Shown here piece by piece: positions 44,257-64,000 of a stretch of 64,000 nucleotides of DNA. The translations under genes and the position numbers were made by a program. Under the pieces are notes generated by a model. It worked only from the letters and a program-made list of their open reading frames with translations. It was not told the DNA's origin and searched no databases. The stretch's first letter is position 1. The number at the start of each line of letters is the position of its first letter. The stretch is from Acidobacteriota bacterium (lineage in GTDB: Bacteria; Acidobacteriota; UBA6911; RPQK01; JAJDTT01), in assembly GCA_965217775.1 (NCBI GenBank), contig CBDCJH010000002.1:1760001-1824000 (forward strand), read 5' to 3'.

Positions 44257-44283
44257 CAGTTCGCCCGCCGATTTCGCCGCCCC

Positions 44284-45426: not shown

Positions 45427-45613
45427 GAAATGTCTCCGGATCTGCCGAGGCCGGCTCGCTCATCCCACCGACTTGACGAGCCGATGTCCTCAATCTCTCA
45501 TGTAGAAAGAGTACGCCCGCACCGATCCGGGCCGCAAGCCCGTGGCAGGTGGCGACACGGCCACGACGGGTGGGATAATCGGGACCGTCACCAGCATGGG
45601 AGGTATCGCAAAC

Positions 45614-46453: not shown

Positions 46454-46508
46454 TTTCCGTCTTGGGAGGGGCGACCATGGGGGACTTCCAATCTTCCGGA
46501 ACCGGAGC

Positions 46509-46615
46509 GGAAAAAGGGGACAGTCTCGTTTCCAGCAGCAGCGTTCGCCGGTTGCCCAACGCCCCCCGAAGGGGACAGTCGAAGTGAAAAAGGGGACAGT
46601 CTTTTTTCCGGGACG
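46509..46615 (+). repeat. Three GGGACAGTC hairpin-motif copies (cores at 46517, 46572, 46593)
   Basis: GGAAAAAGGGGACAGTCTCGTTTCC; GAAGGGGACAGTC; GAAAAAGGGGACAGTCTTTTTTCCGGGACG. Confidence 0.85.
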
Positions 46616-46648
46616 CTTCCGCTTGACCCATTCAGGAGGACAGAGACC

Positions 46649-47809: not shown

Positions 47810-47839
47810 CCCGCATTTCTCAGCGGGGGGCGTGATGAT

Positions 47840-47891
47840 GACGGGGGAAAAAAGGGACGGGAAAAAGGGGACAGTCTATTTTTCCGGGACG
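47840..47891 (+). repeat. GGGACAGTC motif copy (core 47868) with an upstream stutter
   Basis: GACGGGGGAAAAAAGG-GACGGGAAAAAGGGGACAGTCTATTTTTCCGGGACG. Confidence 0.85.
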
Positions 47892-48105
47892 GAAGACACA
47901 GGGCAGACCACAAAGGTGTCGGCTCCTTCGCCTGCAAAGACAACTGAGGTGGTCACTTGGTCAAGTTTCCTCGGATGCTTCCGGAAACGCGAGATTTGCT
48001 GATTTTCTTGAGTTTCCTTCGCCTTTCTTAGTTCTGAATCGTTGTGGTCATCAGAGGTGCGAACCTATCCGCGCCGCGCCGAGTCCGAGTCGTTAACCGA
48101 GGACC

Positions 48106-49047
48106 GTGGCCATGGCCCGAACCGCACGACACAAAAGCACAGAAGCCGCCTTCTATCACCTCACCAATCGAGTCGCCGGCAATTCCGATTGGTTCCCCTT
48201 TAAAAACCACCAAGCCGGTCGCAAACTCCTGGACATGATGTCGTTCTACGTCAATGTCTACCGGTGTCGTTTGGCCGCTTTCCAGATCATGGGCAATCAC
48301 TTCCACTTCGTCATCCATTTTGAGAAACCCCGCCCCCTGTCCCGCGACGAGTTGATGGACAGCGCCCACAAGCTTTATGGACAACAGGCAGAGAAGAAAA
48401 CCGCCGATTGGACCGTCGCCCAGTGGGAGGCTTTCAACCAGCGTCTCTTTGACGTGTCGAAACTGATGGCGAACGTGGACGGGTTCTATGCCCGGTGGTT
48501 CAACCGCAATTTCGGACGACGAGGCCATCTTTGGGGTGATCGTTTCAAGAACCCGGAACTCTTGGGAAGCGAAGCCGTCCAGGACGCCATCCTCTACGTG
48601 GAACTCAATGCCGTCCGGGCCGGACTGGTCAAAAGGCCCGAGCAATGGCAGTGGGGCTCGGCCCGCTGGAGACTCACCGGCGAGGATCAAGATCTGATTC
48701 CACTGGAGGAACTGTTCCCCTCGGATCCCGGAGCGGACGTGTACAGAAGTTACCGGGCTCGCTTGTACTATCGAGGAGCCGTCCCCACCCGGGAGAACCA
48801 GGCTGCGATCCCCCGGTGGATCCTCCTTCAGGAGCAGCGACGTGGATTTACCCGTGCCGGAGCCTTTCTCCGGCGTTTGCGATTTCTGACGGACGGGTTG
48901 GCCGTCGGTCCGGCAGAGAAGGTGGCGCAGTTGCTGGAGACGTATCGAAAGCAAGGTCGATATCGGCGTCGCCGACACCCCATCCCCCAACTGGGCGGAG
49001 TGCTGTTTTCCCTGCGGGAGCAGCGCTCCCACGCCTTCGTCTCGTAG
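48106..49047 (+). mobile_element. RAYT-type (TnpA-REP / IS200-like Y1 HUH) transposase with a C-terminal extension
   Basis: FYHLTNR, MGNHFHFV (HUH), GHLWGDRFK, YVELNAVRAGLV (catalytic Tyr), WQWGS; tail RLRFLTDGLAVG. Confidence 0.88.
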
Positions 49048-49196
49048 ACTCGCCTGATCGCCGACCGTCGATTCTGCCACTCCGGCACCGAACGACCCAG
49101 ATCACGGGAACCACCCAATAGACTGAATTGTCCTCTTAGTGTGTGGAAAGTCCTCCGGACTTCCATCCATTTGCCATGGGTTCACTGCTCTGCTTC

Positions 49197-49290
49197 CGCA
49201 GTCTCTCGCAGTCTCTTCTCAAGACTGTCCCTTTCTGTCTCGACGGCTACCAGACGGCTACCAGACGGCTACCACAAGGGTCGCCCCGAC
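49197..49290. repeat. GACTGTCCC motif (49223) with tandem stutters and a REP-like end
   Basis: CGCAGTCTCT x2; AAGACTGTCCCTTTC; GACGGCTACCA x3 (49242-49274) running into CAAGGGTCGCCCCGAC. Confidence 0.8.
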
Positions 49291-49302
49291 GAACGGTGTC
49301 CC

Positions 49303-50061
49303 CTAGTCGTCCCGGAAACGATCGGCCGTGTCCTGCGGTTCGTATCCCAGGTCCCTCCGGGCGTTGTCCAGTGACCGGTAGTTCCACTTGTTGTCGGAGA
49401 CCACGTAGTAGATCCCGAACTTCAGATCCTCAGGCGCATCGATGCAGCGGCGGATCATCTGGGCGATGTCCGCGTGACTGCACCAGACCGAGAAATCCCG
49501 AACCTCGTTGGGCCGGTCGTTGTAGTGGACGCGGCCGATGCGGAGAGAGATCATGGACAGGCCCCATCGGTCGGAGAAGAACCGGGCCAACGTTTCGCCG
49601 AACGCCTTGCTGCAACCGTAGAGGCCGTTGGGCCGAATCAGCGACGTGTCCACCAAGTCCCAACCGGTCACCTCCTCGTACCGTCCCTCGACCAGGGCAG
49701 CGTAGGGCGGATGCCGTTCCCACTCGCTGACGGCGGCTCCGCTGCTGGCGAAAACAACCCTCTCGACACCCGCCGTCCGGGCCGCCTCGAACACGTTGTA
49801 GGTGCCGACGATGTTGTGCGGGAGCACGTCCTCCCAGGTGGGGTCCCCCTGGGCCATGGCGGCCAGGTGGACGACGGTCTCCACTCCCTCGAAGGCCGGC
49901 CGGATGGCCTCCAGATCGGCAATGTCCGCCTGCAGGCACGGGAGGCCCTCCACCGGACGCCGGTTCAAGGCGCTCAGCTCGTACGCATCTCCCAGTTCCC
50001 GCCGGCAAACCTGCCCGATGAGTCCGCTCATGCCCGTGATCAACACTCTTTTTTTGGCCAT
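49303..50061 (-). CDS. NAD-dependent epimerase/dehydratase (uronate dehydrogenase-like)
   Basis: TGMSGLIG, VHLAA, NIVGTYNV, YGCSK, SLRIG. Confidence 0.85.
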   Translation of the reverse strand: MAKKRVLITGMSGLIGQVCRRELGDAYELSALNRRPVEGLPCLQADIADLEAIRPAFEGVETVVHLAAMAQGDPTWEDVLPHNIVGTYNVFEAARTAGVERVVFASSGAAVSEWERHPPYAALVEGRYEEVTGWDLVDTSLIRPNGLYGCSKAFGETLARFFSDRWGLSMISLRIGRVHYNDRPNEVRDFSVWCSHADIAQMIRRCIDAPEDLKFGIYYVVSDNKWNYRSLDNARRDLGYEPQDTADRFRDD

Positions 50062-50199
50062 GCGGCGATTCTACCGCAGGGCCTCCCAACTCCGCCTGCC
50101 GGGTTTTACCGCCGGTTTTCATTCCCACTTCCAGCCCCTATGATGGGCTCTCGTCTCAACACCCAATTGAATCGGCATCCGGCGAAAGGGAGCGGCAAC

Positions 50200-50934
50200 A
50201 TGTTTCGAAACAAAATCCTCGAGAGAATCAAGAGAGGCGAGAAGGCTCTGGGCCTGTTCATGTCGGACCCTTCCGAAGAACTGGTGGAAATGGCCGGGCG
50301 CATGGGGCTGGATTTCGTCGGCTTCGACGGCCAGCACTCGCCCCTCACTCCGGAACGGGTCGGCACCCTGTGCACCATCGCGGACGGGTTCGACGTCACT
50401 CCCACCATGCGCGTCCCCGATGGGAATGAAAGCACGCTACTGTCCTATTTGGACCGTGGGATCCGCGGCATCACGGTTCCCAACATCCAGACCCGTGAAG
50501 AAGCCGAAAAACTGGTCAAATACACCTATTTCGCACCGCTGGGCCTGCGCAGCTCCACCAGCTACCGCATGGTCATGAACCAGGACGGAAAGGACCGCAA
50601 CACCCTCTTCCAGGAAGTCAACGCCAACCTGATGATCGTCCCCCAACTGGAGAGCGTGACTTCAATCCGGAATTTGGACGAGATCCTTCAGGTGGAGGGG
50701 ATCGACTACCTCGGAGGCGGCCCCGAAGACATGGCCCAGTCCATGGGGATTCCGGGCCGGCATGACGATCCCAGGGTGACCCGGATCTACAAGGAGATGG
50801 AACAGAAGGTCCATGCCGCCGGAAAGCTCATGGCGGGAGACTACATCGAGTCGGTGAACGTCTTCTGGAACGTCAAGGGCGCATTGGAGCAACTGCTTGA
50901 AAGCCACGGCCGCCGCTCTCGCATGACCTGGTAG
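50200..50934 (+). CDS. HpcH/HpaI aldolase/citrate lyase family protein
   Basis: GLDFVGFDGQH, RVPD, LDRGIRGITVP, PLGLRS, QLES, GPEDMAQSMG. Confidence 0.85.
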   Translation: MFRNKILERIKRGEKALGLFMSDPSEELVEMAGRMGLDFVGFDGQHSPLTPERVGTLCTIADGFDVTPTMRVPDGNESTLLSYLDRGIRGITVPNIQTREEAEKLVKYTYFAPLGLRSSTSYRMVMNQDGKDRNTLFQEVNANLMIVPQLESVTSIRNLDEILQVEGIDYLGGGPEDMAQSMGIPGRHDDPRVTRIYKEMEQKVHAAGKLMAGDYIESVNVFWNVKGALEQLLESHGRRSRMTW

Positions 50935-50950
50935 TGAAGACCCCCACCCC

Positions 50951-51904
50951 GTGAAGTACGTCGTCAATCTGCCCATCGCCGGCCCTCTGGCGACTCCCCG
51001 CAGTCTCTCGGCTCTCGCTCGAACCGCCGAGGCCCAGGGAGTCGACATCATCTCCTCCAGTGAGCGCCTGGTCCTGCCCTGCTCCGTCGAGACCCGCTAT
51101 CCGTACGGCGCCACGGGCAAGTTTCCCGGCGGAAGCGGCAGCCAGAAGAGCCTGGAGATGCTGATGACCCTGGCCTTCCTCTGCGGCCAGACCTCCCGGG
51201 TCCGCATCCTGACCTCGGTCCTGGTCCTGCCCTACCGGGATCCGATCCTGGCGGCCAAGATGCTGGCCACCCTGGACGTCCTCTCCGAAGGCCGGCTCAT
51301 CGTGGGCTGCGGCGTCGGCTGGATGCGGGAGGAGTTCGAAGCCCTGGGCCTGCCGGTCCGATTCGAGGACCGGGGCCGCGCCTCGGACGAGTACCTGAGG
51401 GGCATGCAGGAACTCTGGTGTAGCGAGAACCCTGAGTTCAAAGGCAACCACGTCCGTTTCTCCGGGATCGAATTCCATCCCCAGCCGGTACAGCGGCCTC
51501 ATCCGCCTTTCTGGTTCGGCGGCGAGAGCCCCGCGGCCCTCCGGCGCGTCGCCCGCTTCGGAGACGGATGGATGCCCATCGCCGGAAACCCGCGCCATCC
51601 GCTGGACGACGACCGGCAACTCGCCCGGGCGATTGAAAGACTGCGCCGAATGGTGGAGGCCGAAGGCCGGGACCCGGACAAGATTCACGTCCGGTTCGGC
51701 GGAGGGTGGAACGAGTCCCCGCGCCCGGGCCCGGCAGGAGAGAGACTGCCCATGAGCGGCACGGTCCAGCAGGTGGCCGGAGACATCCGCCGCTATCAGG
51801 ATCTGGGAGTCGACCACCTGGGAGTGGGTCTGTTGACGGAGGACCTGTCCGAGAGCCTGGAACGGATCGAGCGCTTCATGACCAGTGTCGTGCCGGTGGT
51901 CTAG
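50951..51904 (+). CDS. LLM-class flavin/F420-dependent oxidoreductase
   Basis: TSVLVLPYRDPILAAKMLATLDVLSEGRLIVGCGVGWMREEF; PVQRPHPPFWFGG. Confidence 0.9.
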   Translation: MKYVVNLPIAGPLATPRSLSALARTAEAQGVDIISSSERLVLPCSVETRYPYGATGKFPGGSGSQKSLEMLMTLAFLCGQTSRVRILTSVLVLPYRDPILAAKMLATLDVLSEGRLIVGCGVGWMREEFEALGLPVRFEDRGRASDEYLRGMQELWCSENPEFKGNHVRFSGIEFHPQPVQRPHPPFWFGGESPAALRRVARFGDGWMPIAGNPRHPLDDDRQLARAIERLRRMVEAEGRDPDKIHVRFGGGWNESPRPGPAGERLPMSGTVQQVAGDIRRYQDLGVDHLGVGLLTEDLSESLERIERFMTSVVPVV

Positions 51905-51917
51905 GAACTTGCGCGAT

Positions 51918-53150
51918 TCACACTCTCAGGAAGATCCTCCGCCGATACATCCACCAGCAGACCAGCCAGAACGTGAGCCCCACCATCACCGACTCGAGGG
52001 CGGGCTCATTGGCGGCTCCCCAGAGCTGGGAGATGTTCTGCCCCAGGTGTGTCCGCAAGGTTGCTGCGGTCCAGTCGGGTAGAAGCATGCTCATCGAGTA
52101 GATCGCTATGGAGTTGGTTCCCACCACCACCAGAGGGAAGGTCCAGCGACGGATCCTGGCGATGTCAATCAGGACGTAGAGTCCTCCCAGGATCAGGCAG
52201 CACCAGCCCGTCGAAAAGATTGCCCAGGAGGGTGTCCAGATCCGCTTGACAAGTGGACAGACACCCGTCCAATCGAGGATCAGCCCTACGGTCAGACCGA
52301 GAATCCCCGCTGCCAGAAGTGTTCTGAGCTTGGTTCTGGCCGAGCGGTGCGAGCGCAGGAACCCGCCCACCATCAGGCCGAAAAGCATGGTGGCCAGGGA
52401 GGGAATAAAATTGATGGTCTGATACCCTCCTCCGTTGTGGACGAACGGCTCCTGGCGTGGCAACTGGTTCAGCAACCAGCCGTCAACGGCATGACCGACG
52501 TTGGCGTTCTTATGCCAGGCTGGAGACACTTCCGCCAGATGTCGCTGAGCCCACTCCGGTTGAACACCCACCTCAGGCGAGCCGCTCGGAAGCTCGACAC
52601 CGGCTCCGGGATACAGGACGTACAACATCCAGGTCAGGATCAGGACGAACACTGCCCCAAGGGCCTGACTTCGAATTCTTCGACGCCAGAACAAAAAGAG
52701 GAAGGTGTAGCCCAGCCCGATCTGCGTCAGGACATTCATCAGTGACCAATTGGTGCCGGAGAGCGAATCGGAAATCAGGAAGATGCCCAGAAGGATGAGG
52801 ACGGCGGATCTCCCGAGGGCGTGGCGCAGCATCTTGCCGTACGAGTGCCCCAGTCCCGATCGTTTGGCATAGGAGTAGGCCATCGACACTCCCACCATGA
52901 ACATGAAGGAGGGTTGGATCAGATCCCAGTAGCCACATCCGGTCCAGGGGACGTGGGAAAACTGGTAATGAACCGTCTGCCAGAAGGAAGAGTCCGGGTT
53001 GGTTGCCAGATGATTCTCGGCCGTCTCCCTGAGACCGAAACCCTTGAAGGCGAGGGAGACCATGATCAGTCCACGATAGGCGTCAAGAGACAGCAACCTC
53101 TGTTGCTGCCGGTTGCTTTTCGCGACCTCGGATTCACCGTGGGATCCCAC
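51918..53150 (-). CDS. Membrane acyltransferase (DUF5009 / HGSNAT-like)
   Basis: RLLSLDAYRG, WDLIQPSFMFMVG, VKRIWTPSW, GTNSIAIY, MYRRRIFLRV. Confidence 0.88.
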   Translation of the reverse strand: MGSHGESEVAKSNRQQQRLLSLDAYRGLIMVSLAFKGFGLRETAENHLATNPDSSFWQTVHYQFSHVPWTGCGYWDLIQPSFMFMVGVSMAYSYAKRSGLGHSYGKMLRHALGRSAVLILLGIFLISDSLSGTNWSLMNVLTQIGLGYTFLFLFWRRRIRSQALGAVFVLILTWMLYVLYPGAGVELPSGSPEVGVQPEWAQRHLAEVSPAWHKNANVGHAVDGWLLNQLPRQEPFVHNGGGYQTINFIPSLATMLFGLMVGGFLRSHRSARTKLRTLLAAGILGLTVGLILDWTGVCPLVKRIWTPSWAIFSTGWCCLILGGLYVLIDIARIRRWTFPLVVVGTNSIAIYSMSMLLPDWTAATLRTHLGQNISQLWGAANEPALESVMVGLTFWLVCWWMYRRRIFLRV

Positions 53151-53640
53151 GAACGCCCCTCCGTCGAGTCGACATCAACAATCTACGATGATCAGCATGC
53201 TGGCACCGTCCGCATGGTGATTCAACTGACCATGGATGGCCTTTCTGCTGCTCAGTATCCCGGTGTGGCGAGCTTTTCTGTGCCGTTAGGCCCAATTCCT
53301 CGTCACCGACACGAAAATCGATTTGTTTAAAAGCATTTCAGTGGTTTTCTCAGCCATATGAATTCAAGCGCTGCCCTGCCGGCTCGAATGCGGTGATGAA
53401 AGCCGAAATCCGGCGATGTCCAGGGGTATTCGACCTTTCACGGGCACTCGTGAGCGATGGTTCTCCCCCAAGAGCCGGCTCCAGGGCAGAGTCCGTCCCG
53501 CAGACTTCCAACTTGGCGTCTTCCCAACGGCGGGTTCGCGGTAACAGCGAAGCGGATGGGTTTGCACTCGGGCCAGAACCGTCCGCAACCATGCCGCGTA
53601 CGGGTAGCTCTCGGAAAACGACAACCAGACCTTGCTCGCA

Positions 53641-53711
53641 CGCACACACAGAGAGGAGGTGCGCACACACAGAGAGGAGGTGACCAGAGAGGAGGTGACT
53701 GTCCCTTTCTC
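53641..53711. repeat. GACTGTCCC motif (53697) preceded by tandem stutters
   Basis: CGCACACACAGAGAGGAGGTG x2, then CAGAGAGGAGGTGACTGTCCCTTTCTC. Confidence 0.85.
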
Positions 53712-53914
53712 ATTCTGGTTTTTTGCGGGGAACACCACAGGAAAGAGTCCCCCTCGGCATCGGTCGGAATCCCCTGTCGCCTCTCTCGTGGCCGTTGTCC
53801 GCCGGTTCTGGTCCCCCGGGGCGACCGTTGGTATTCTCCAATGCACGCCTGACGGGTGGGGAAGTGCCCAGGACACGCCGTACCCATCCGGTCTAGGCTG
53901 GATCAGGAGTCCGT

Positions 53915-56290
53915 ATGATCAGTCCTCTACTTAGCTCATTCTCGAGTTCGTTTTTTGCTGGGTGGCTGTTTTTCGTTCTGTCACCGACGCAAACTGGCGG
54001 CCCCCCGTCAGAGAACGTCCGCCGACAGGCGGACGACTCGATTGTCCGACAGGAGCAGGAAGAGAAGGTTCTATACTTCCCGGATTATGTGGATGGCGGG
54101 GGCTGGTCGGTGCAACTAGTGCTCAGCAACGTCGACCCGAACGCCGCCGCCGAGATCCGGGTGGAAGTCTACGACCCGGACGGACAAAACCTTCGGGATC
54201 TATTCGATTCCGATTTGACGTTGGAGATTCCGGCGCTGGGCACTCGAGTCTTGAGAAGCGCCGGTTCAGGAGCCATTCGGCGGGGTTGGATCCGGATCGA
54301 GACCGATGCCGGCACCGTCAGTGGATTGTTGACCTACCGGCACGCCCAATCAGGGATCGAAGTCGTCGTCGAGCCCGCCCAATTGGGGAAGGAGTTCGCT
54401 CTGTTCGTGGAGGAATCAGAGACCGTCGGGGCGGGACTGGCCCTCTTCAAACCGGATGCGGAATCCAGGATCGAGGTGAGACTGCGCGACGAGGAGGGGA
54501 ACGATCCGTTGAACGGATTGTTCGTCCCCTGGGGGGATTTCCACCAGGCGGCGCGCACGCTCCCGGAATGGTTCGCCGTTGAAGGAATTGATATGGGATT
54601 TCTGGAGGACTTCCACGGCTTCCTGTTCCTACGAAGTGAGGACGGCACCCCCTTCGCTCCGCTCGGGCTGCGGTTCGGGAAGCGGACCTCTTCACTCTCG
54701 GCGGTGCCGGCGATTCGGGTCCCGGACGGAGGCGGGAACGACGGTGGCCATCCACCCCCGCCGACATCGATCGATCAGGGTCAGAGCACGACGTTGACGT
54801 GGCCGTCGACGAGTGCGGCGAGTGCGGAGATCACCCCGGACATCGGCGTGGTGCCCACTTCGGGTTCGCGGAAGGTGTCGCCGGACGTCACCCCGCCCTG
54901 CCACATCAACGTAACAGGGGCCGACGGACAGACCGCCATGGCGTCGGTCACGGTGACCGCCCTGACGGAATGTGATCGGGTCGGCGTCCCGGTCGAGCCG
55001 GTATCCGGAGAGCCGGCGGCCGCGATCCGCATTGTGGCAGGCGAGGGGCAACGCGCGTTCACCGAGCGCACCCTCGACAAGCCCCTTGTAGTTCGCGTTC
55101 TCGACACGTCAGATCTGCCTGTTTCCGGGGTGGCCGTGAACTTCGTACCAACGCCGGAAAGCGGTCGGGTGGATCCCTCGACCGCAGCCACGGATTCGAA
55201 CGGCGAGGTCGCGGTGGAGTGGACCATGGGCTCCGCGGCCGGTATCCAGACGCTCATAGTCGCCGCAGGCCTGGCTATTACGGGTGTCAACGTCTACGCG
55301 ATCGACCTCGAGTCCGAACTCGACAACGTTTTTGCCGCGCCGACCGCCGCGGAGATCGAGGCCGTTCGTGCAGACTGGGCCGCGCGTGACATCTCTGCGG
55401 TTGACGTGTTCGTTGAATTCACGGAGACGTATCCCCTGGGCGAAACCCCGGCGACCCTGCGCGTGGTGTCGCATCAGGTCGGGGAGGTGCGCCACTACGG
55501 GGCGATCCTTGCGCCCGACTCTGCGGCACCCGGGACGCTGCCCGTCCTGATGTACCTGCACGGCGGCGACAGCGGTGTCGACGTGGGCGACATCGATATC
55601 GTCGGGTATTCCTTGGGCGAGCTGCGAGACAGCTTCGTCTACGTAATCCCGTCTTTTCGCAGCGAACGGCTTGAATATGGCGATAGCGTGTGGGTCTCGA
55701 CCGGATCTGGCGGTCACTGGGACTACGATGTGGACGACGCCCTGGCGCTCTTGAACGTGGCTCTGGAGCTGACTCCGCAGGCGAAGTCCGAAGGTGTGAG
55801 CATCGTCGGCGGAAGTCGTGGAGCGGGCGTCGCCATGCTGGCCGGCATCCGCGACGAGCGCATCGAGAACATCGTCGCCTTCTTCGGTCCCACCGACTTC
55901 TTCGACGACTGGGTGCGGCAAATCGTGCGCGAGGCGGTCCTGGGGCGTCCGCGCCAGCTCACGGGCGTGGCCCACATGGACTCCACTTTCGTTCAGCCCT
56001 ACATGAGAGGCGAGATCGAACTGGCTGAGTTGCGCCTGGAGTTGGTGCGCCGCTCCTCCGTCCTGTTCGCCGAAGACCTGCCGGGCGTCCAGCTGCACCA
56101 TGGCGATTCCGACGAGACCGTCGCCGTCAGCCAAGCGTACTCGATGATCCGTACCATGGAGGCCTTGGGACGCGAGCCTCCCGAGTTCGAGGCCTTCATC
56201 TACGAGGGTGGAGGACACGAGGTGTTCGGTCTAAGGGGTGCCATTCCGCGGGCGGTGCGGTTCCTGTGGCGTGCCCTGGGAAGGGAATAA
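53915..56290 (+). CDS. Exported multidomain protein: beta-sandwich, Ig-like domains and an S9-like alpha/beta hydrolase
   Basis: YFPDYVDGGGWSVQLVLSN; GVAVNF..TDSNG (Big_1-like); YLHGG, GGSRG nucleophile, HGDSDETV, YEGGGH. Confidence 0.75.
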   Translation: MISPLLSSFSSSFFAGWLFFVLSPTQTGGPPSENVRRQADDSIVRQEQEEKVLYFPDYVDGGGWSVQLVLSNVDPNAAAEIRVEVYDPDGQNLRDLFDSDLTLEIPALGTRVLRSAGSGAIRRGWIRIETDAGTVSGLLTYRHAQSGIEVVVEPAQLGKEFALFVEESETVGAGLALFKPDAESRIEVRLRDEEGNDPLNGLFVPWGDFHQAARTLPEWFAVEGIDMGFLEDFHGFLFLRSEDGTPFAPLGLRFGKRTSSLSAVPAIRVPDGGGNDGGHPPPPTSIDQGQSTTLTWPSTSAASAEITPDIGVVPTSGSRKVSPDVTPPCHINVTGADGQTAMASVTVTALTECDRVGVPVEPVSGEPAAAIRIVAGEGQRAFTERTLDKPLVVRVLDTSDLPVSGVAVNFVPTPESGRVDPSTAATDSNGEVAVEWTMGSAAGIQTLIVAAGLAITGVNVYAIDLESELDNVFAAPTAAEIEAVRADWAARDISAVDVFVEFTETYPLGETPATLRVVSHQVGEVRHYGAILAPDSAAPGTLPVLMYLHGGDSGVDVGDIDIVGYSLGELRDSFVYVIPSFRSERLEYGDSVWVSTGSGGHWDYDVDDALALLNVALELTPQAKSEGVSIVGGSRGAGVAMLAGIRDERIENIVAFFGPTDFFDDWVRQIVREAVLGRPRQLTGVAHMDSTFVQPYMRGEIELAELRLELVRRSSVLFAEDLPGVQLHHGDSDETVAVSQAYSMIRTMEALGREPPEFEAFIYEGGGHEVFGLRGAIPRAVRFLWRALGRE

Positions 56291-56356
56291 AGTAGCTTAT
56301 GGGGCTGACCTTTTGCCGGAGTTGGAGGAATCTTTCGGAGAGGGAGGTGACGTCAC

Positions 56357-56683
56357 GTGAAAACACGCCGCAAGTTCCCCGCCGGTACAGTCCTCGTCAC
56401 GGCGATCCTGGGGGCAGTTTCTCTCAGCCCATCCAGAATGGCGCACGCGGGACCCGAGGAGTACGAGCGCGTCTATTGGGACAAGGGAGACGCGAGGAAG
56501 GTCATCGCCCGCGCGACAGCAATCGACATGGGGAACACCAGTGAGATGCTCCTTCGCATCACTGCAGCCGCATTCAATACCGAACCGAACAGAGACGAGA
56601 CCACTTCTGGCGTCTGGCTCACAGACGACGTCTGCTGGTCACTGGCTATTCTTGTGCAAGAGGAATTAACGACGGACCGATGA
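56357..56683 (+). CDS. Exported hypothetical protein, possibly frameshifted near its end
   Basis: GGAGG RBS, signal peptide ending in AHA; an alternative frame continues TDEEKEKFYESF. Confidence 0.4.
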   Translation: MKTRRKFPAGTVLVTAILGAVSLSPSRMAHAGPEEYERVYWDKGDARKVIARATAIDMGNTSEMLLRITAAAFNTEPNRDETTSGVWLTDDVCWSLAILVQEELTTDR

Positions 56684-57812
56684 GGAGAAGGAGAAATTTT
56701 ACGAGTCCTTCGTGGAAACGGGTGCATGCCGTGAAGCCCGACACCCCGCCCGAGCACCGGGATTGGTATCCGCAGGGGACAGACTCACCGACAACCGAAA
56801 CGGAACAAATGAAGCGACCTTATGATGCCTAAAAAGAATCTTCGAGGTGACCGCTGGGATACGGATTCGATGATTTGGAACGCCATTCGTATACGGGTCG
56901 TTGCCCGAGCTGTTGTGGTCTCATCGGGATTCCCATACCTACTGGACGCACCTCCACGAAAAGCGTTGGGGCGTGTTTCGAACCAGTGAACTCAGTCAGG
57001 CCTTAACGGTGATACTCAACGCCTACAGTAAGCGGTGGGGCGATTCCGCCTATAGCGCGGACACTTATGGGTGAGTCGCCTGCCGAGAGACAAGCCTGCG
57101 CTGCCCCGTCGCTGAAGAGGATTCTGCGTCGCCTCCTCTGTGGTGGAGCCTTTTCCTCCGCTGGATCGCAGTAACGTACTTTATCGACATTAATTCGAGG
57201 CCCCCGCCGCAGACCAATCCGGGCCGCCCACCCTCCACGCGGGGACTCCGCAAATCCGGCCGGCCCCGTAGAGGGCCTCTGCCGCGTCGGCTCCAGGCGC
57301 GCCCGCGCCCGGCCGGGCCGGATTTGGCCGGAACGGGGGATTTTCGGAAGATCCGGAGAAGAAAACGCGCTCAGAGGGCCTGTGCCGGCCTGGCGAGCCC
57401 GGACCAACGGTTAGGTGATAGGCCCTGGAGCTACACCCAGGCTCCGCCAGCGTCTCGCGGCGGAGGGGGAATTTTGCAGAACGGGCGCGCGGGTATTTTG
57501 TGGTCCGAGAGATCTGGACCTCGAGCGGTCTGAGAAACGCGATCCTGCTTCCGGAACTCGGCCGGGGATTCGTTTGTTTCCAGGGGGTTGCGGAAGCGTA
57601 CATCGTTCGCTCGAATGAATAATCCCCGCTCTCTGACTTGATACACAGGCCTCCGGCGGTCCGCGGCGGCCGGGGGGAGCTCCACCGGGTCAATTTGGAC
57701 GTCTCCGAGACCCTGCAGGGCCGACTTGAGGCGTGGAGTCCGCCCGATTTTGGCGAAAATCGGCCTACAGGACCTCGCTGACGACAGAACCTGACTCCGC
57801 CGGCGTTGGATC

Positions 57813-58151
57813 ATGTCTGAAACGATGCGAAAACGCCGGAAGCTCAACACCAGAGCCGGCCGGCTGGCGGCCCGCGAGCGAGTCCGTCAACTGGTGAGTG
57901 AGCACGATGACCAGATGGTGCTCCTGGTCTGGGGTGGCCGAGTGCTCGGCTGGTCGCTCCGCCGGATCGCAGCGGCCCTGGAGGGGTCAGTAGCTCCCCC
58001 CGGCCGCCGGGCGGGGTACGCGGCCGGGAAGTGGACGGCAGCCGCTGTCCAGCGGATTTGCCGCCGCCACGGCATTCCCACGGACCGGCCCGCCGAGCCG
58101 CCCCGTGCGTTCCTCGCGGACGTGAGGGGTTCTGAAGCGCGGGATTACTGA
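57813..58151 (+). CDS. Small protein with a serine-recombinase-type DNA-binding (recombinase) domain
   Basis: GWSLRRIAAALE...PPG......GKWTAAAVQRI. Confidence 0.5.
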   Translation: MSETMRKRRKLNTRAGRLAARERVRQLVSEHDDQMVLLVWGGRVLGWSLRRIAAALEGSVAPPGRRAGYAAGKWTAAAVQRICRRHGIPTDRPAEPPRAFLADVRGSEARDY

Positions 58152-58251
58152 ATCAGCGGAATGTTTGACTCCAAGGTGAAACTCCGGCCCGAGATCAGCA
58201 TCTAAGGGGAGGTCGATCACCCACGCATCCGGACCCGCGAGGAGGACCACC

Positions 58252-58590
58252 ATGGCGAGACCCACCGATGAGATCATGAACGGGCAAAGAGTGGTCCACG
58301 TCGAGAACGAGGACGAATTCTTCTACTACTCCGATCGGGGTCCGATAACACTTTCCCGCGAGCTGGCGGAATCCCTGGGCTTCAGGGAATACCCCGGCTC
58401 CGCGGAAGAACTGCACGCCGAGGAGTGGGAAGAGACATTGAACGGCGAGCGGGAGTGGGAGGAGTTGCAGAAAGAATGGGCCGAAGAGGAGCGGCGGGCC
58501 GAACACCCGACGGACCCCTCCAGCCCCTTCTATGAAAGAGATGACCGCCCCCTGGCTGTGGTGATCCCGTTCCCAACCAGGGTCCAATAA
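58252..58590 (+). CDS. Acidic hypothetical protein
   Basis: GAGGAGG RBS, ATG start, Glu/Trp-rich. Confidence 0.55.
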   Translation: MARPTDEIMNGQRVVHVENEDEFFYYSDRGPITLSRELAESLGFREYPGSAEELHAEEWEETLNGEREWEELQKEWAEEERRAEHPTDPSSPFYERDDRPLAVVIPFPTRVQ

Positions 58591-58604
58591 AATCAACTTA
58601 TTCT

Positions 58605-58663
58605 GAGAAAAGGTGACTGTCCCCTTCTCGGTCCTCGTCCCCTTCTCGGTCCTCGATCCCCTC
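58605..58663. repeat. GACTGTCCC motif (58615) with a downstream stutter
   Basis: GAGAAAAGGTGACTGTCCCCTTCTC; GTCCCCTTCTCGGTCCTC x2. Confidence 0.88.
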
Positions 58664-58765
58664 ATTTTTCCCAACCCGGTGAGCCCCTTCCGACGAGAAA
58701 TTCACATCTTCTGATGTGGAGCCGCTAATGAGGAGCGGAGTCACTCCATGGCAGTAGGAGGCACC

Positions 58766-59287
58766 ATGATGATTATTCTGACGATGAAATCGAGCCGGAC
58801 TCAGATCCTCGCCTTGTTCCTGGTGGGACTGACCTTCCAGCCGGCGCACGCGGAGGTGATCCCGGGACGCTGGGAGAAGGTCTCCGCCTTGGAAATGGCA
58901 TCAACCGTCACGGTGGAACTGAAAAACGGGGATCGAATTAAGGGCCAGTTCCGAGGCTTGGTGCCATCAGCTCTGGAACTCCGGAGCCCCGCTGGCCGGG
59001 CAGTGATTCCAAAATCGGACATCCAGATGATTGCCACTCTGGCGAAGGATGGTCTGGGCAACGGAGCCGGGATTGGAGCCGCGGTCGGGGCCGGCCTTGG
59101 ACTCGGGGCCTTCGTCCTCGCTGCTCGTACTCGAGGTGGTTTGGATTCGGCACCGGGGACTTTGTTGACCATTGGCGGAATCGGAGCAGGCATAGGGGCC
59201 GCAATAGGCGCGGCTGCCGATGCCGCCACGAAGGGCGAGACCATCGTACTCTACAAAGCCCCTGGAAGTTCTCAGCGTTCCAAATGA
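58766..59287 (+). CDS. Exported glycine-zipper hypothetical protein
   Basis: AGGAGG RBS, signal peptide ending in AHA; GAGIGAAVGAG and GIGAGIGAAIGA. Confidence 0.7.
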   Translation: MMIILTMKSSRTQILALFLVGLTFQPAHAEVIPGRWEKVSALEMASTVTVELKNGDRIKGQFRGLVPSALELRSPAGRAVIPKSDIQMIATLAKDGLGNGAGIGAAVGAGLGLGAFVLAARTRGGLDSAPGTLLTIGGIGAGIGAAIGAAADAATKGETIVLYKAPGSSQRSK

Positions 59288-59432
59288 AGGGGTTCGGAGT
59301 GGTGGCTACCCGATCCGCCGGCAGCCGAGACGCAAACAGCGAACCTTTCAAAATGATGGGGAATTGGCGGTTCTCTTCGGGAACGTCTATGTCCATTAAC
59401 GAAGTTAACGGAAGCACAGGGGTTCGACCCAT

Positions 59433-59557
59433 CAGATGTCGGGGACATCCGCCGCTACCAGGATCTCGAAGTCGACCACCTGGGAGCGGGTCTGTTGACG
59501 GATGACCTGTCCGAGAGTCTGGACCGGATCGAGTGCTTCATGACCACCGTGGCGCCG
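59433..59557 (+). pseudogene. Degenerate duplicate of the LLM oxidoreductase 3' end (51770-51904)
   Basis: GACATCCGCCGCTA...GTCGACCACCTGGGAG...CTTCATGACCA nucleotide similarity. Confidence 0.9.
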
Positions 59558-59559
59558 GG

Positions 59560-59997
59560 GGGGCTCCATTTTTAGAACCGGCATTCGTAGTGAAGGACCC
59601 GGCGTCACTGCCGCGTTCCACTGGGGAGTACGAGATCATCGGGCGAACCGGTGACGGGGACGTGTTGTTCTCGCTTCCATTCCAGATGCCGGAGGTGGCC
59701 GACGGAGATGGGAGATCCTCCTTCGCTTTCGTTCTGCCTGTGCAGCCAGAATGGGCCGATCAGTTGGCCAGCATCACCCTGTCCGGACCCGGTGGCTCGG
59801 TCACGCTGGATCAGGACACCAACCGCCCGGTCACTATCCTGCGAAATCCGCGGACCGGGCAGATTCGTGCCATCCTGCGCGGCGCGGCGGCCGCCCCCGA
59901 AAGCGTGGACGCCACAGTGTCGGCGCTGTCATTGGACCCGGGATTGGAGAGGTTGACCAGCCGCGGAATCCCGGACCCGGAAGGCTGGACACAATAA
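59560..59997 (+). pseudogene. C-terminal fragment of a large exported protein
   Basis: Reading frame PFLEPAFVV...SRGIPDPEGW starts abruptly, fused to the LLM fragment, with no RBS or signal peptide. Confidence 0.6.
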
Positions 59998-60075
59998 TAG
60001 AGGCGGATCGTTCACCCGGAGAACGAACTCCGTAAATTGACGTCCGTTAACTGCAATTAAAAAGGAAGCAGCGCA

Positions 60076-60129
60076 GCGAAAAGGTGACTGTCCCCTTCGC
60101 ATTCGCATTCGCATTCGCATTCGCATTCG
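60076..60129. repeat. GACTGTCCC motif (60086) followed by (TTCGCA)5
   Basis: GCGAAAAGGTGACTGTCCCCTTCGC, then TTCGCA x5. Confidence 0.88.
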
Positions 60130-60187
60130 GGGTCCCATGGAGAAGGTACTGGCGCTCTGCAAGAAGTACGGCGTGGCCTTCGGAACC

Positions 60188-60591
60188 CTACTTTGTGATC
60201 CCGCCAGATTGCCCCCAGCCGGTCGCTTGGCGCTCCCCCCCTTTGTGGTACTCCACTGATACATTGAACGCAGAACCAAAGACATGGGCGCTCACGTATA
60301 GAACTGGCCCGTCTGTCTTGGCTCGGTCATAAGGATCCGAGTAGAGGCCGACTGGCCGCAAGTGCGTTACCGCCGCCAGCCAGAGGCGATGCTCGGTTAA
60401 ACCAATTTTCCTCGCATCGTTGCTCAAGCGTTTCACCACTACTGCCATGGGACGGCAGGCGTTGTACAGCCTCCTCCGGTCCTGGTCGTTAATATGCTGG
60501 CCTTGATGGGGCCGAGCTGAAATACCGCGAAAACAGCGAGTGCAACGAACCAGGTTGGGAGTCTGACGGGCCGGCGATTGCGGGGACTCAT
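60188..60591 (-). pseudogene. Frameshifted exported hypothetical protein
   Basis: Signal peptide MSPRNRRPVRLPTWFVALAVFAVF in one frame; mature-like LYNACRPMAVVV...VSVEYHK in another. Confidence 0.45.
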
Positions 60592-60684
60592 GCGGTGGAA
60601 CCCTACTACACCCTCTCCCGTGGTCGGCATCATTCCATTCGTGACGGTTTACGGATATCATAAAGCTAGGTACTCTGGCGGTTC

Positions 60685-60963
60685 ATGATCCGAAGTTTCA
60701 GCGACCGAAACACCCGGCGCTTCTTCGAGGGCCGTCGGGTGGGAGCGTTCCAGGGATTCGCAGATCAGGCCGTGCGCCGTCTCACCCTGTTGGACAACGC
60801 GGAGTCCCTTCGAGACTTGGCCGGGTTGCCCAGCAACCGTCTGGAAGCGCTTCGGGGCAACCGGGCCGGCCAGTTCAGCATCCGGATCAATGCGCAGTGG
60901 CGAATCTGTTTTCGTTGGGGAGAGGATGGACCCTACGAAGTCGAGATCGTGGACTATCACTGA
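60685..60963 (+). CDS. higB: HigB/RelE-family toxin
   Basis: MIRSFSD..T..FF, PSNRLEALRGNRAGQFSIRINAQWRICF, VEIVDYH. Confidence 0.92.
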   Translation: MIRSFSDRNTRRFFEGRRVGAFQGFADQAVRRLTLLDNAESLRDLAGLPSNRLEALRGNRAGQFSIRINAQWRICFRWGEDGPYEVEIVDYH

Positions 60964-60973
60964 GGAGGTCGAG

Positions 60974-61315
60974 GTGACGAGCTTTAAAAATGGGATGCGA
61001 CCGGTGCATCCGGGAGAGATCTTGCGGGACGAGTTGGATGCGCTTGGCTTGTCGGCCAATGCGCTGTCGAAGGCACTGGGCGTGCCCGTGAATCGAATCA
61101 CGGCGATCCTGAATGGGCAGCGGGGTGTGACGGCCAACACGGCATTGCGCCTGGCGCGCTACTTCGGGACGACCCCGCAGGTTTGGCTGAATCTGCAGAA
61201 GACGTGGGAGCTGCGGCGGGAAGAGATCAGCGTTGGGAGCTTGATTGCCGAACGCGTCCAGCCCCGGCAAACGATGACGCCGATTGAAGTGACCAGTGTC
61301 GACACCCGATCCTGA
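60974..61315 (+). CDS. higA: HigA antitoxin (HTH)
   Basis: PVHPGEILRDEL, LGVPVNRITAILNGQRGVTANTALRLARYFGTTPQVWLNLQ. Confidence 0.92.
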   Translation: MTSFKNGMRPVHPGEILRDELDALGLSANALSKALGVPVNRITAILNGQRGVTANTALRLARYFGTTPQVWLNLQKTWELRREEISVGSLIAERVQPRQTMTPIEVTSVDTRS

Positions 61316-61435
61316 GTAAATGTCCGGTCAACTGTTCACCCAGTATTTTCTCACCGACGTCATAAAGACCACCTTTGAATGGAGAGCGTCACTCGCCCAA
61401 CCGGAGGACTTCCTCCAGTTCCGAGACAGAAGACG

Positions 61436-62095
61436 ATGATAACCACCAATGTCATCCAGCGGACCTTCTTCGTCAAGATCGGTAATATGACAGGCACTGC
61501 GTTCACCATTGACCGCAACGGTAGGCAATACCTCGTGACGGCCCGCCATATTGCTGGTGGCGCAGTGCAAAGCATGGAGGTCTTCCACAATGGCCGGTGG
61601 ACGTCGCTTAGTGTAAACGCCGTAGGCATTGGACGGAACGACGTCGACGTAGCTGTCTTCGCGCCCAATGTCATATTGTCGCCGCCACATCTTCTAGAGG
61701 CGACCTCTGCTGGATTGACCTACGGACAGCCAGTTTCCTTCCTCGGGTTCCCTTTCGATTGGCAAGGAGGCTTGGCCCACATGAACAACGGTTTCCCGTT
61801 TCCGTTCGTGAAGGCTGGAATCGTAAGTGCACCGCCCAGCCACCGGATTTGGACCGACACCCACGGCAACCGAGGGTTCAGCGGCGCCCCGGTGGTATTC
61901 AAATCGCTATCTGGCGCCGGCAACTCGCCATGGAAGGTCGCGGGCATCGTTGTTAAATCAAAGCCCGATCCTCAGACAGGCGGGAACGCTGGATTCGTCA
62001 TTGCTGAACCAATCAAGGCTGCGACAGCCTTGATGGACGAAAGGCCTATCGGAGCTACAATGTTCGGCGGAACTGCCTCCGGCAAGACATCCTGA
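61436..62095 (+). CDS. Trypsin-like serine protease
   Basis: GTAF, LVTARH (His), DVAV (Asp), FLGFP, GNRGFSGAPV (Ser); no signal peptide. Confidence 0.8.
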   Translation: MITTNVIQRTFFVKIGNMTGTAFTIDRNGRQYLVTARHIAGGAVQSMEVFHNGRWTSLSVNAVGIGRNDVDVAVFAPNVILSPPHLLEATSAGLTYGQPVSFLGFPFDWQGGLAHMNNGFPFPFVKAGIVSAPPSHRIWTDTHGNRGFSGAPVVFKSLSGAGNSPWKVAGIVVKSKPDPQTGGNAGFVIAEPIKAATALMDERPIGATMFGGTASGKTS

Positions 62096-62123
62096 TTAGA
62101 CCTTGCCGGGCGACGATTCACAC

Positions 62124-62158
62124 AGAGAAAAGGTGACTGTCCCCTTCTCACCTTTTCG
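62124..62158. repeat. GACTGTCCC motif (62135) with an inverted stutter
   Basis: AGAGAAAAGGTGACTGTCCCCTTCTCACCTTTTC; TCACCTTTTC is the reverse complement of GAAAAGGTGA. Confidence 0.88.
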
Positions 62159-62725
62159 AGAGGGAAGGTCCAGCGACGGATCCTGGCCACGTCAATCAGG
62201 ACGTAGAGTCCTCCCAGGATCAGGCAGCACCAGCCCGTCGAAAAGATTGCCCAGGAGGGTGTCCAGATCCGCTTGACAAGTGGACAGACACCCGTCCAAT
62301 CGAGGATCAGTCCTACGGTCAGACCAAGAATTCCCGCTGCCAGAAGTGTTCTGAGCTTGGTTTGGGCCGAGCGGTGCGAGCGCAGGAACCCGCCCACCAT
62401 CAGGCCGAAAAGCATGGTGGCCAGGGAGGGAATGAAGTTGATGGTCTGATACCCTCCTCCGTTGTGGACGAACGGCTCCTGGCGTGGCAACTGGTTCAGC
62501 AGCCAGCCGTCAACGGCATGACCGACGTTGGCGTTCTTATGCCAGGCTGGAGACACTTCCGCCAGATGTCGCTGAGCCCACTCCGGTTGAACACCCACCT
62601 CAGGCTAGCCGCTCGTAAGCTCGACACCGGTTCCGGGATACAGGACGTACAACATCCACGTCAGGATCAGGACGAACACTGCCCCAAGGGCCTGACTTCG
62701 AATTCTTCGACGCCAGAACAAAAAG
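62159..62725 (-). pseudogene. Near-identical 567-bp duplicate of acyltransferase segment 52132-52698
   Basis: Colinear nucleotide match with scattered substitutions; bounded by motif copies at both ends. Confidence 0.93.
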
Positions 62726-62804
62726 CGCAGAGCAAAGGTGACTGTCCCCTTTTCGCGACCCGCCCGTCACGCAGAGCAAAGGTGACTGTCCCCTTTTCGC
62801 GACC
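62726..62804. repeat. Two direct 35-bp repeats containing the GACTGTCCC motif (62740, 62784)
   Basis: CGCAGAGCAAAGGTGACTGTCCCCTTTTCGCGACC at 62726-62760 and 62770-62804. Confidence 0.9.
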
Positions 62805-62981
62805 GGTGGGTCATGCGCTGTGCGAACGGAGACATCTACGACGTTTCTTATGTGAAGGGGGAGGAGCGCAACCGAACGATCCGGAAACTGCAACAGTGAC
62901 ACCTTCCGGGGGATGTAACGAGGCAGTTTCTACTGAAGCGGATCTATCTTGCAATTGATCGTCGAACCGCTGGGAGGATGA

Positions 62982-63452
62982 ATGATCGACGAGCGGAAAC
63001 TAGCGGAACTCCTAATGCGTCCCTACAGACAGCGCATCATGAACAACGTCCACAGGTCGGAATACGTGGAGTGTCTGGTGGCTCTTGCGCTGGAGGACAC
63101 GTGGGAACGCCAAGAGCATTGGTCAGAGTACGATTTTAAACACAAGCGTTCCGGCAAGCGGCTCGAACTCAAACAGTCCGCCGTACGGCAAGCCTGGGAA
63201 CAAGCGGAGCCTTCGCAATCGCGATTCGAATTCAAGCCGCCCGGCACGACGGACATCTACCTCTTCGCTTGGCATGGGCACTGGCGAAACGCCGCCCACA
63301 GCGACATCATGCAGTGGCAGTTTTTCGTTGTCCCGGAACGGGACCTGCCAGAACAAAAGAGCATCGGCGTGAACCCGCTAACGGAGATCGTGGCGCCATG
63401 CACGTTTGAAGAACTGCGGGACGGAGCAGCAAGGGTAGAAGAATCACTCTGA
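62982..63452 (+). CDS. Hypothetical PD-(D/E)XK restriction-endonuclease-like protein
   Basis: RSEYVECLVA..., WSEYDF......RLELKQSA, DIYLFA, WQFFVVP. Confidence 0.6.
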   Translation: MIDERKLAELLMRPYRQRIMNNVHRSEYVECLVALALEDTWERQEHWSEYDFKHKRSGKRLELKQSAVRQAWEQAEPSQSRFEFKPPGTTDIYLFAWHGHWRNAAHSDIMQWQFFVVPERDLPEQKSIGVNPLTEIVAPCTFEELRDGAARVEESL

Positions 63453-63663
63453 CCTGCCAGCACGAGCGGACCGAGAAAGCTGAATGCCGAGCCCTTTACC
63501 GACGAACGCCTCGGCGAGGAGCTGCGAGTGGTGGCCACTGCCGGATGCCCTGAGTCGCGGTGCCCGTTGCCGTGACCGCCACCCCTTCTCTGAACAATGC
63601 CCGACAACCTGTCCGCGAGCGTCCCTTAACTGAAATTAACGGACGCACGGCGGCTCGGCCCAT

Positions 63664-63801
63664 CAGGTGTCCGGGGACATCCGCCGCTATCAGGATCTGG
63701 GAGTCGACTACCTGGGAGTGGTCCTTTTGACGGAAGATCTGTCCGAAAGTCTGGACCGGATCGAGCGCTTCATGACGACCGTGGCGCCGCTGGTCCAGTG
63801 A
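63664..63801 (+). pseudogene. Third copy of the LLM oxidoreductase 3' end (possible attR-side remnant)
   Basis: CAGGTGTCCGGGGACATCCGCCGCTATCAGGATCTGGGAGTCGAC...GCTGGTCCAGTGA. Confidence 0.9.
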
Positions 63802-63802
63802 A

Positions 63803-64000
63803 TCAGACCGACGCGACCGTTTCCCTCCGGCAGATTCCCGCCAAGAGCCCCATCCCCTCCCGAATGACCTGGGGAGGATCGTAGCCGAAACAGAGCCTGG
63901 CGCAGTTGTGACCCGAATTTCCCTCGGGCGACAGGCGAATGCCGGGAAAGATGATAATGCCCTCGTGAAGTGCCTGGTCGGCAACCGCCTGCATGTCGAC
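63803..64000 (-). CDS. C-terminus of a PLP-dependent aminotransferase (MocR/ARO8-like), partial
   Basis: GIIIFPG......NCARLCFGY....IREGMGLL. Confidence 0.65.
   Translation of the reverse strand, partial: VDMQAVADQALHEGIIIFPGIRLSPEGNSGHNCARLCFGYDPPQVIREGMGLLAGICRRETVASV

Follow-up and report, generated by a model that had tools for sequence, protein, structure and literature searches.

A scrap of a resident acyltransferase-like gene between palindromic repeats of a RAYT/TIRYT-type transposase

The window, by which we mean the whole stretch of 64,000 nucleotides analysed, carries an intact acyltransferase-like gene, a dead copy of the inner part of that gene, a series of short palindromic repeat units and one gene of the transposase family that the repeats flank. 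The features on which the argument rests are as follows.

47863–47877, minus strand: upstream flanking repeat of the transposase gene, of the GGAAAAATAGACTGTCCCCTTTTTC type, on the strand opposite to the gene
48106–49047, plus strand: RAYT/TIRYT-type Y1 (HUH) transposase gene, one of 11 at full length (90% identical to the copy used as query; 50.2 bits with NCBIfam REP_Tyr_transpos, cut-off 80)
49223–49232, plus strand: downstream repeat core GACTGTCCCT, 179 nt past the transposase gene and on the same strand
51918–53150, minus strand: intact source gene, 410 aa, NagX-like transmembrane acyltransferase (profile matches below cut-offs), with the source segment at 52132–52698
53636–63610, no strand: hypervariable island between conserved flanks, a mosaic with relatives elsewhere in the genome (from sister-genome comparison)
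53640–53715, plus strand: motif copy after three partial left-half copies (CAGAGAGGAGGTG)
58605–58660, plus strand: motif copy with its right half tandemly repeated (two copies of GTCCCCTTCTCGGTCCTC)
60074–60127, plus strand: motif copy followed by five TTCGCA repeats
60685–61315, plus strand: HigA-type antitoxin gene (60926–61315; TIGR02607 92.7 bits, cut-off 47.7) and small upstream ORF (60685–60963), island cargo
62118–62158, plus strand: motif unit 1 (profile copy m29), core GTGACTGTCCCC at 62133–62144, directly left of the fragment and including TCACAC
62159–62725, minus strand: dead 567-bp acyltransferase copy, the inner part of the gene, an ungapped match to 52132–52698
62726–62804, plus strand: motif units 2 and 3, cores at 62738–62749 and 62782–62793, in tandem with a period of 44, directly right of the fragment

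The preliminary description of this DNA had presented 62159–62725 as a duplicate of 52132–52698, and global alignment with a base-by-base count confirms it: the two match over 567 bp without a gap and differ at 14 positions (97.5% identity). Read in the frame of the intact gene (51918–53150, minus strand), six codons differ synonymously, four by amino-acid replacement and one, a serine codon, has become TAG through a single mismatch (62605–62607, minus strand). The copy is a pseudogene scrap, and its source, about 10 kb away, is still intact. Since the source gene is only NagX-like (133 bits against a cut-off of 480 for the NCBIfam NagX model, transmembrane glucosamine N-acetyltransferase, with a full-length alignment) and matches Pfam Acyl_transf_3 weakly (18.3 bits, cut-off 31), the name acyltransferase is fair but unproven. 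Set against sister genomes G006 and G002, the fragment and its own source gene have four derived sites in common; from this comparison, the template of the fragment appears to have been the acyltransferase gene of the genome's own lineage. The intact gene has gained more private changes since the duplication (10) than the dead copy (4), an excess that could come from recombination with a foreign allele. A model of tandem duplication followed by deletion was ruled out, as 52699–62158 contains no second copy of 62726–63610 at the 97% level. Beyond the island, 63803–65008 had been taken for an acyltransferase paralogue, wrongly: it is a PLP aminotransferase/MocR-like gene.

The repeat that borders the scrap on both sides is a 25-nt near-palindrome of the form 12-1-12, GAGAGAAnGTGAC-T-GTCCCCTTCTC, according to a position matrix of 109 copies; it is directional owing to two asymmetric positions that are conserved. 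These 109 copies were found in the 6.43-Mb genome with an nhmmer profile (E<0.01), and 99 of them are intergenic by crude gene calls; the window alone has seven matches to the motif word where 0.01 would be expected. In the 11 arrays with at least three copies, 94% of the units are co-oriented, as expected from a strand-specific process. A 35-nt unit fills 62124–62158, as had already been correctly reported, and a doubled motif starts at 62726, with a period of 44. Many units have partial tandem copies of their left or right half alongside, and the TTCGCA microsatellite at 60098–60127 begins within the right arm of a motif unit. The spacing of the motif in the window, from 44 bp to about 4.9 kb, is unlike that of uniform CRISPR spacers, and Rfam gave no match in 44000–64000 at E≤1. 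An impression of compensatory changes in the palindrome arms was ruled out by a covariation test, base-pair covariation being equal to the shuffled expectation at every position. The predicted single-strand hairpins of five units are weak (−4 to −8 kcal/mol, z −1.9 to +0.2); with weak hairpins and no covariation beyond base composition, a hairpin substrate remains hypothetical.

The transposase was found through a genome search with Pfam Y1_Tnp, which gave three matches, one of them with motif-like repeats on both sides. The genome contains 11 full-length copies of this 311-aa protein gene, 83–100% identical and one with an internal TAG, as well as one scrap. A repeat core lies upstream of all 11 on the opposite strand (−128 to −297 nt), and downstream of 10 of the 11 on the same strand (+162 to +320 nt), and similarity among the 11 loci drops to background just beyond the flanking repeats. 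The protein scores 37.3 bits against Y1_Tnp (cut-off 23) and its translation contains HFH, the HUH motif, and YVELNAVRAGLV, the catalytic tyrosine motif; the catalytic domain ends at about residue 180, leaving a C-terminal extension. Nearly the whole of the NCBIfam RAYT model NF047646 aligns with it, at 50.7 or 50.2 bits and thus below the cut-off of 80. Pfam shows no helix-turn-helix match in it and PDB no sequence match. The name TIRYT has been given to RAYT-like genes flanked by inverted repeats that share GGGGWSAS (Di Nocera et al. 2013, PMC3733652), a consensus that the reverse complement of the core, GGGGACAG, fits; the same paper describes an Acidobacteria-specific TIRYT group, and a later study places most TIRYTs in TnpA_REP subclass 2.1 (Quentin et al. 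2018, PMC6006769). As judged from these sequence features, the motif is the REP-like terminal inverted repeat that belongs to a Y1 HUH transposase of the RAYT/TIRYT type, present in multiple copies.

The solo repeats are not gathered around these genes. Arrays lie no nearer to transposase genes than random positions do (median 282 kb vs 193 kb; 2 of 31 arrays within 20 kb), and they show no replichore bias (14 leading, 17 lagging). None of the 15 IS110 transposase copies in the genome was seen beside an array, and the IS91-type Y2 transposase profile PF04986 had no match, in a weak search whose control also had none. The 461 proteins encoded within 6 kb of 35 arrays include no recurring recombinase; the families that do recur there are cargo, among them BNR, GFO/IDH/MocA oxidoreductases, sulfatases, DUF1501 and HigA.

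Where, then, do the copies of the motif lie with respect to the DNA around them? For each of the 109 copies, the surrounding 812 bp, with the copy in the middle, were compared with the whole genome. A boundary of a homology block falls within 30 nt of the core in 63–65 of the 109, against 14–34 of 109 in windows offset by 60–366 nt. Homology runs through the motif in five of the 109, all of them pairs between contig C1 and its look-alike region of C2. Junction pairs of at least 100 bp and at least 80% identity number 91; in 69 of them a partner lacks the motif at the breakpoint, and in 22 both partners have it. Of the refined boundaries before the core, 16 of 17 lie 7–17 nt away from it; of those after the core, 16 of 16 lie at 3–24 nt. 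By manual count, a C opens 11 of the 17 left joints and CG closes 5 of the 16 right joints. The preliminary description had inferred that the arrival of the motif is mechanistically tied to the deletion or joining of DNA. Its concern that other motif copies might never coincide with breakpoints is answered by these figures, which tie the motif, as far as sequence comparison goes, to the joining of unrelated DNA; the element of arrival does not stand, as the units at this locus are older than the fragment (see below).

C1 (144 kb) is colinear with 5.15–5.31 Mb of C2 (C2:5150001–5310000) at 92–97% identity, and may be the haplotype of a second strain or a large diverged duplication; the contamination reported for the assembly is 7.47%. 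The two differ by 14 structural changes of at least 300 bp, seven of which involve motif copies and are mostly replacements of segments, and the 144 kb of pairing contain no bare motif insertion.

The island around the fragment is bounded on the left by the acyltransferase gene, and on the right by a scrap of a luciferase-like gene followed by the PLP aminotransferase-like gene, which are conserved. It differs in every sister genome examined (n=6):

This genome: 10 kb, six motif units
G001: 184 bp, no motif
G006: 912 bp, one unit
G002: 776 bp, three tandem units
G005: 1254 bp, several units
G003: 2996 bp, eight tandem units (in 336 bp), a 791-aa gene and a 186-bp spacer
G004: 3.1 kb, other DNA

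The tandem units of G002 and G003 have periods of 17–45 nt. The fragment itself is absent from 40 relatives: G001–G006 mostly have one match to it, which is the intact gene, with a few second, partial or weaker matches, and G007 has a match on a second contig of 58 bp at 91%. Unit 1 is identical at 33 of 34 positions (62118–62151), TCACAC included, to the single unit that G006 carries at the same locus, and units 2 and 3 are identical at 25 of 26 to units of G002 and G003 at the same locus, again where the fragment is missing. Since both flanking unit types are found at this locus in relatives that are free of the fragment, these alignments make the motif units older than the fragment, which came between them. 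The idea that the motif is a target duplication left by the insertion is ruled out here: units 1 and 2 differ from each other at several positions, and the fragment is only 2.5% diverged. The simplest history that the sequences allow would be a single insertion of the 567-nt copy between adjacent units, at ...CCTTTTCG^CGCAGAG..., and motifs would stand at both ends of the fragment because it was inserted exactly between units 1 and 2.

Other parts of the island have relatives elsewhere. The segment 55763–56807 (1045 bp) is a second young duplicate, 97.7% identical to C2:1877709–1878752, which itself lies inside another motif array. G023, which belongs to another family, has a counterpart of the HigA module (60602–61315) at 86% DNA identity, and sister genomes have several copies; this distribution suggests that the module has spread horizontally, perhaps together with the repeat system. 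Two multi-copy modules, 53287–53638 (350 bp, no accepted gene call) and 58745–59283 (a 179-aa ORF of no known family), adjoin motif units at several arrays and recur, for example, at C1:25350–27363 and C2:5273787–5279308. The 3' end of the luciferase-like gene (51756–51904) is present as scraps at 59391–59561 and 63621–63798, 86–88% identical to it. Both scraps have an extra 5' stretch in common and therefore descend from one older scrap; the right-hand one (63621–63798) is conserved in six of six sister genomes. Between the luciferase-like and acyltransferase genes, G006 has about 500 extra bases (L011 3100–3609) where this genome has 13.

How could a piece of a resident gene have come to lie between two repeat units? 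Y1 HUH enzymes cut single strands just outside a palindrome and rejoin them. By analogy with these enzymes, we infer the following course of events. A small array of motif units would already have been present at the hotspot, in keeping with the solo copies that form co-oriented arrays in hypervariable intergenic hotspots elsewhere. The transposase would cut at the palindrome's foot, on single-stranded DNA, and rejoin the ends, and would occasionally accept pseudo-sites that resemble an arm of the motif within ordinary genes, in this case AGAGGGAAGGT and AGAGGAAGGTG. Segments so excised or copied would then be pasted at motif units, and in this case the 567-nt copy of the nearby acyltransferase gene would have gone in exactly between units 1 and 2. 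We give about an even chance to this reading as a whole, in which the units are repeats of the transposase, the array pre-existed, the fragment was inserted between its units and the cutting and rejoining were enzymatic.

The use of pseudo-sites can be looked at in the source gene. The right source breakpoint had been described as similar to an arm of the motif, and so it is, as is the left one: purine runs like the left arm lie directly 3' of both, AGAGGGAAGGT at 52132 and AGAGGAAGGTG at 52697, and in arm-likeness both rank near the 98th percentile of random positions. Among the junctions, 6 of 33 are arm-like above the 95th percentile where about 1.7 would be expected, or 4 of 31 without the two of the fragment itself. 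The first and wider test, which looked up to 25 nt to either side of 40 source breakpoints for pseudo-sites resembling the motif, gave no enrichment, and the narrower one gave p 0.03–0.05, uncorrected and with several tests run. At most, arm-like breakpoints of this kind hint at sequence-directed cutting.

Chief among the rivals is a passive instability of the palindromes, to which we give a real but minor chance. Palindromes of 25–35 nt would in this case rearrange as fragile sites without a dedicated enzyme, by fork stalling and template switching or by recombination between units, and the link to the transposase would explain only the origin of the repeats. Several observations agree with it: the slippage-like tandems of half-units at 53640–53715, 58605–58660, 60098–60127 and many other places, the tandem unit arrays of G002 and G003, the placing of arrays away from transposase genes, the outcome of the wider pseudo-site test, and the 22 of 91 junction pairs whose two partners both carry the motif, an outcome expected of unit-to-unit recombination. 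However, 69 of the 91 pairs have a partner free of the motif at the breakpoint, and motif-to-motif recombination cannot make such junctions. Moreover, the predicted hairpins are weak, the joints keep to a short interval at the palindrome's outer foot, and no microhomology was seen at the two joints of the fragment.

An insertion between pre-existing units also replaces an earlier reading of the left joint, according to which a longer 3' duplicate that included the stop codon was made first, the landing of a motif then replaced 208 bp of it (the equivalent of 51924–52131), and a second landing truncated the copy. The exact 10-mer CGATTCACAC on which it was built does occur at both 62114–62123 and 51914–51923, a colinear place, and at the latter it covers the TGA stop codon of the gene at 51918–53150 (minus strand); the gene-like match around it extends to 13 of 14 with one gap (p about 0.03 in a shuffle test). 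But beyond CACAC nothing at the left side is significantly similar to the gene in the shuffle test, and TCACAC is part of the left motif unit. At the orthologous locus of G006, the counterpart of unit 1 has TCACACAGAG as its left flank, and a similar flank, TCACAC(AGAG), is found in G005 and at C2:5279089 of the genome itself. Because TCACACAGAG is thus the ancestral flank of unit 1, we reject both the retained stop codon and the replacement of 208 bp; the 10-mer is largely the unit's own flank. With both unit types at the locus in fragment-free relatives, and with seven motif-associated replacements against no motif-only insertion between C1 and C2, this earlier reading has become improbable.

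That the island is a cassette array of the integron or Xer-module kind, its cassettes exchanged by a tyrosine recombinase acting at the palindromes, is very improbable. Co-oriented arrays between small ORFs, a toxin-antitoxin module in the cargo and a cassette content that varies by strain would suit such a system, but an integron integrase is absent (best TIGR02249 match 80.6 bits, cut-off 265, none above), no recombinase family recurs among the neighbouring proteins, and most junction partners are without any site. As for an assembly artefact, in which the fragment would have been misplaced at the repeated motifs, the chance is slighter still in spite of the reported contamination and of a right joint that no Logan contig bridges, since the 14 differences from the source, a private stop codon among them, argue against a collapsed or misplaced repeat, and the flanks 61800–62156 and 62731–63100 are identical in runs of two studies. 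Support for the junctions, on which the preliminary description had made its claim depend, was checked with short Logan contigs and is secured in part. One X19 contig matches 61933–62188 exactly, crossing unit 1 and reaching 30 letters into the fragment past the left joint (threshold 31 letters); the right joint, 62725/62726, is the unbridged one. A joint from 62149 to 62782, which skips 632, appears in runs X22 and X24 with only 20 letters on one side and a depth of 3–5; it could be a form without the fragment, but carries no weight here.

The transposase and the motif occur in the same genomes. Homologues of at least 73% identity were found, among 41 relatives searched, only in the nine genomes of the genus (3–12 matches each) and in G023 (79% identity, three matches); in the sister genus they reach at most 54% identity. 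Sister genomes hold 3–11 full-length copies. The motif pattern has 30–121 matches in the same ten genomes and 0–9 in the other 127 of the 137 class genomes, and a reversed control pattern has 0–2 per genome; an unpublished genome, G016, was counted in the homologue and motif tallies only. Kin genomes are not independent, so that this co-occurrence represents, on the evidence of these searches, at most two independent lineages. The transposase homologues of G023, G006, G001, G011 and G017 are likewise flanked by core inverted repeats, and in G023 six tandem units of the array type lie downstream of the transposase gene.

Several known systems resemble this one in part. Like the REP/BIME-RAYT systems of Proteobacteria (REPtrons, REPINs), it has short extragenic palindromes that flank a linked Y1 transposase gene, and one palindrome dispersed in many extragenic copies, here 109. 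Unlike them, it has neither a GTAG nor a CGTC tag in its position matrix, its units are co-oriented rather than arranged as inverted doublets, and its transposase is multi-copy and below the NCBIfam RAYT cut-off, whereas the REPtron gene is single-copy per repeat family. In the IS200/IS605 elements that move by 'peel and paste', such as IS608 and ISDra2, subterminal palindromes define the ends, the cuts fall a few bases outside the foot of the hairpin and no target duplication is made. These elements use a Y1 HUH enzyme as well and serve as the model for the mechanism that we infer here; the flanking repeats of our transposase are, however, inverted and not direct, its copies are 83–91% identical and not near-identical, and the DNA moved is apparently arbitrary, lying between or beside solo ends. 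In Neisseria, the inverted-repeat dRS3 units of intergenic mosaic elements bracket variable intergenic segments and are linked to rearrangement, which is a likeness to our arrays; they differ from the motif in sequence and in enzyme class.

There is also a close likeness to the TIRtrons or TIRYTs as described in two papers (PMC3733652, PMC6006769): the protein is RAYT-like, of the Y1 HUH class and with a long extension at its C terminus, the gene is bracketed by inverted repeats whose core fits GGGGWSAS, and repeat families also occur in dimers or clusters. Compared with these descriptions, the present family has 11 diverged gene copies and more than 100 solo repeats in long co-oriented arrays, and its repeats lie at the joints of strain-variable mosaic DNA that includes scraps of resident genes. 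The kind is thus a known one, repeats of a RAYT/TIRYT-type transposase. In the passages of the TIRYT/RAYT literature that we consulted, we found no description of co-oriented arrays acting as joints between the pieces of strain-specific mosaics, a recent fragment of a resident gene among them; a full-text search found no paper on REP-like repeats at the breakpoints of gene scraps, and the TIRYT lists in the supplements of PMC3733652 and PMC6006769 may include the family.

The locus bears on what RAYT-like transposases and their palindromes do for their hosts or to them. Our analysis adds the transposase of the motif, the series of haplotypes and the order of events. If the enzyme does make the joints, the repeats would drive mosaicism of the accessory genome in a poorly studied soil phylum. 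One may go further and imagine that the transposase and its co-oriented solo repeats constitute a gene-shuffling system acting on single-stranded DNA, integron-like without an integrase, in which any DNA between units or pseudo-sites could be moved to the foot of a unit. We regard this wider proposal as distinctly doubtful; were it true, strain-specific accessory islands would be built in this way, and 'domesticated' transposases of the RAYT-like type would have a concrete role. In the enzymatic cut-and-rejoin reading, the predicted cut sites are narrow, a few bases outside the palindrome. The insertion of the resident gene scrap is young and datable, with its source intact 10 kb away, and the genus offers natural before-and-after states of the locus: empty, with one unit, with tandem units, and with units and cargo.
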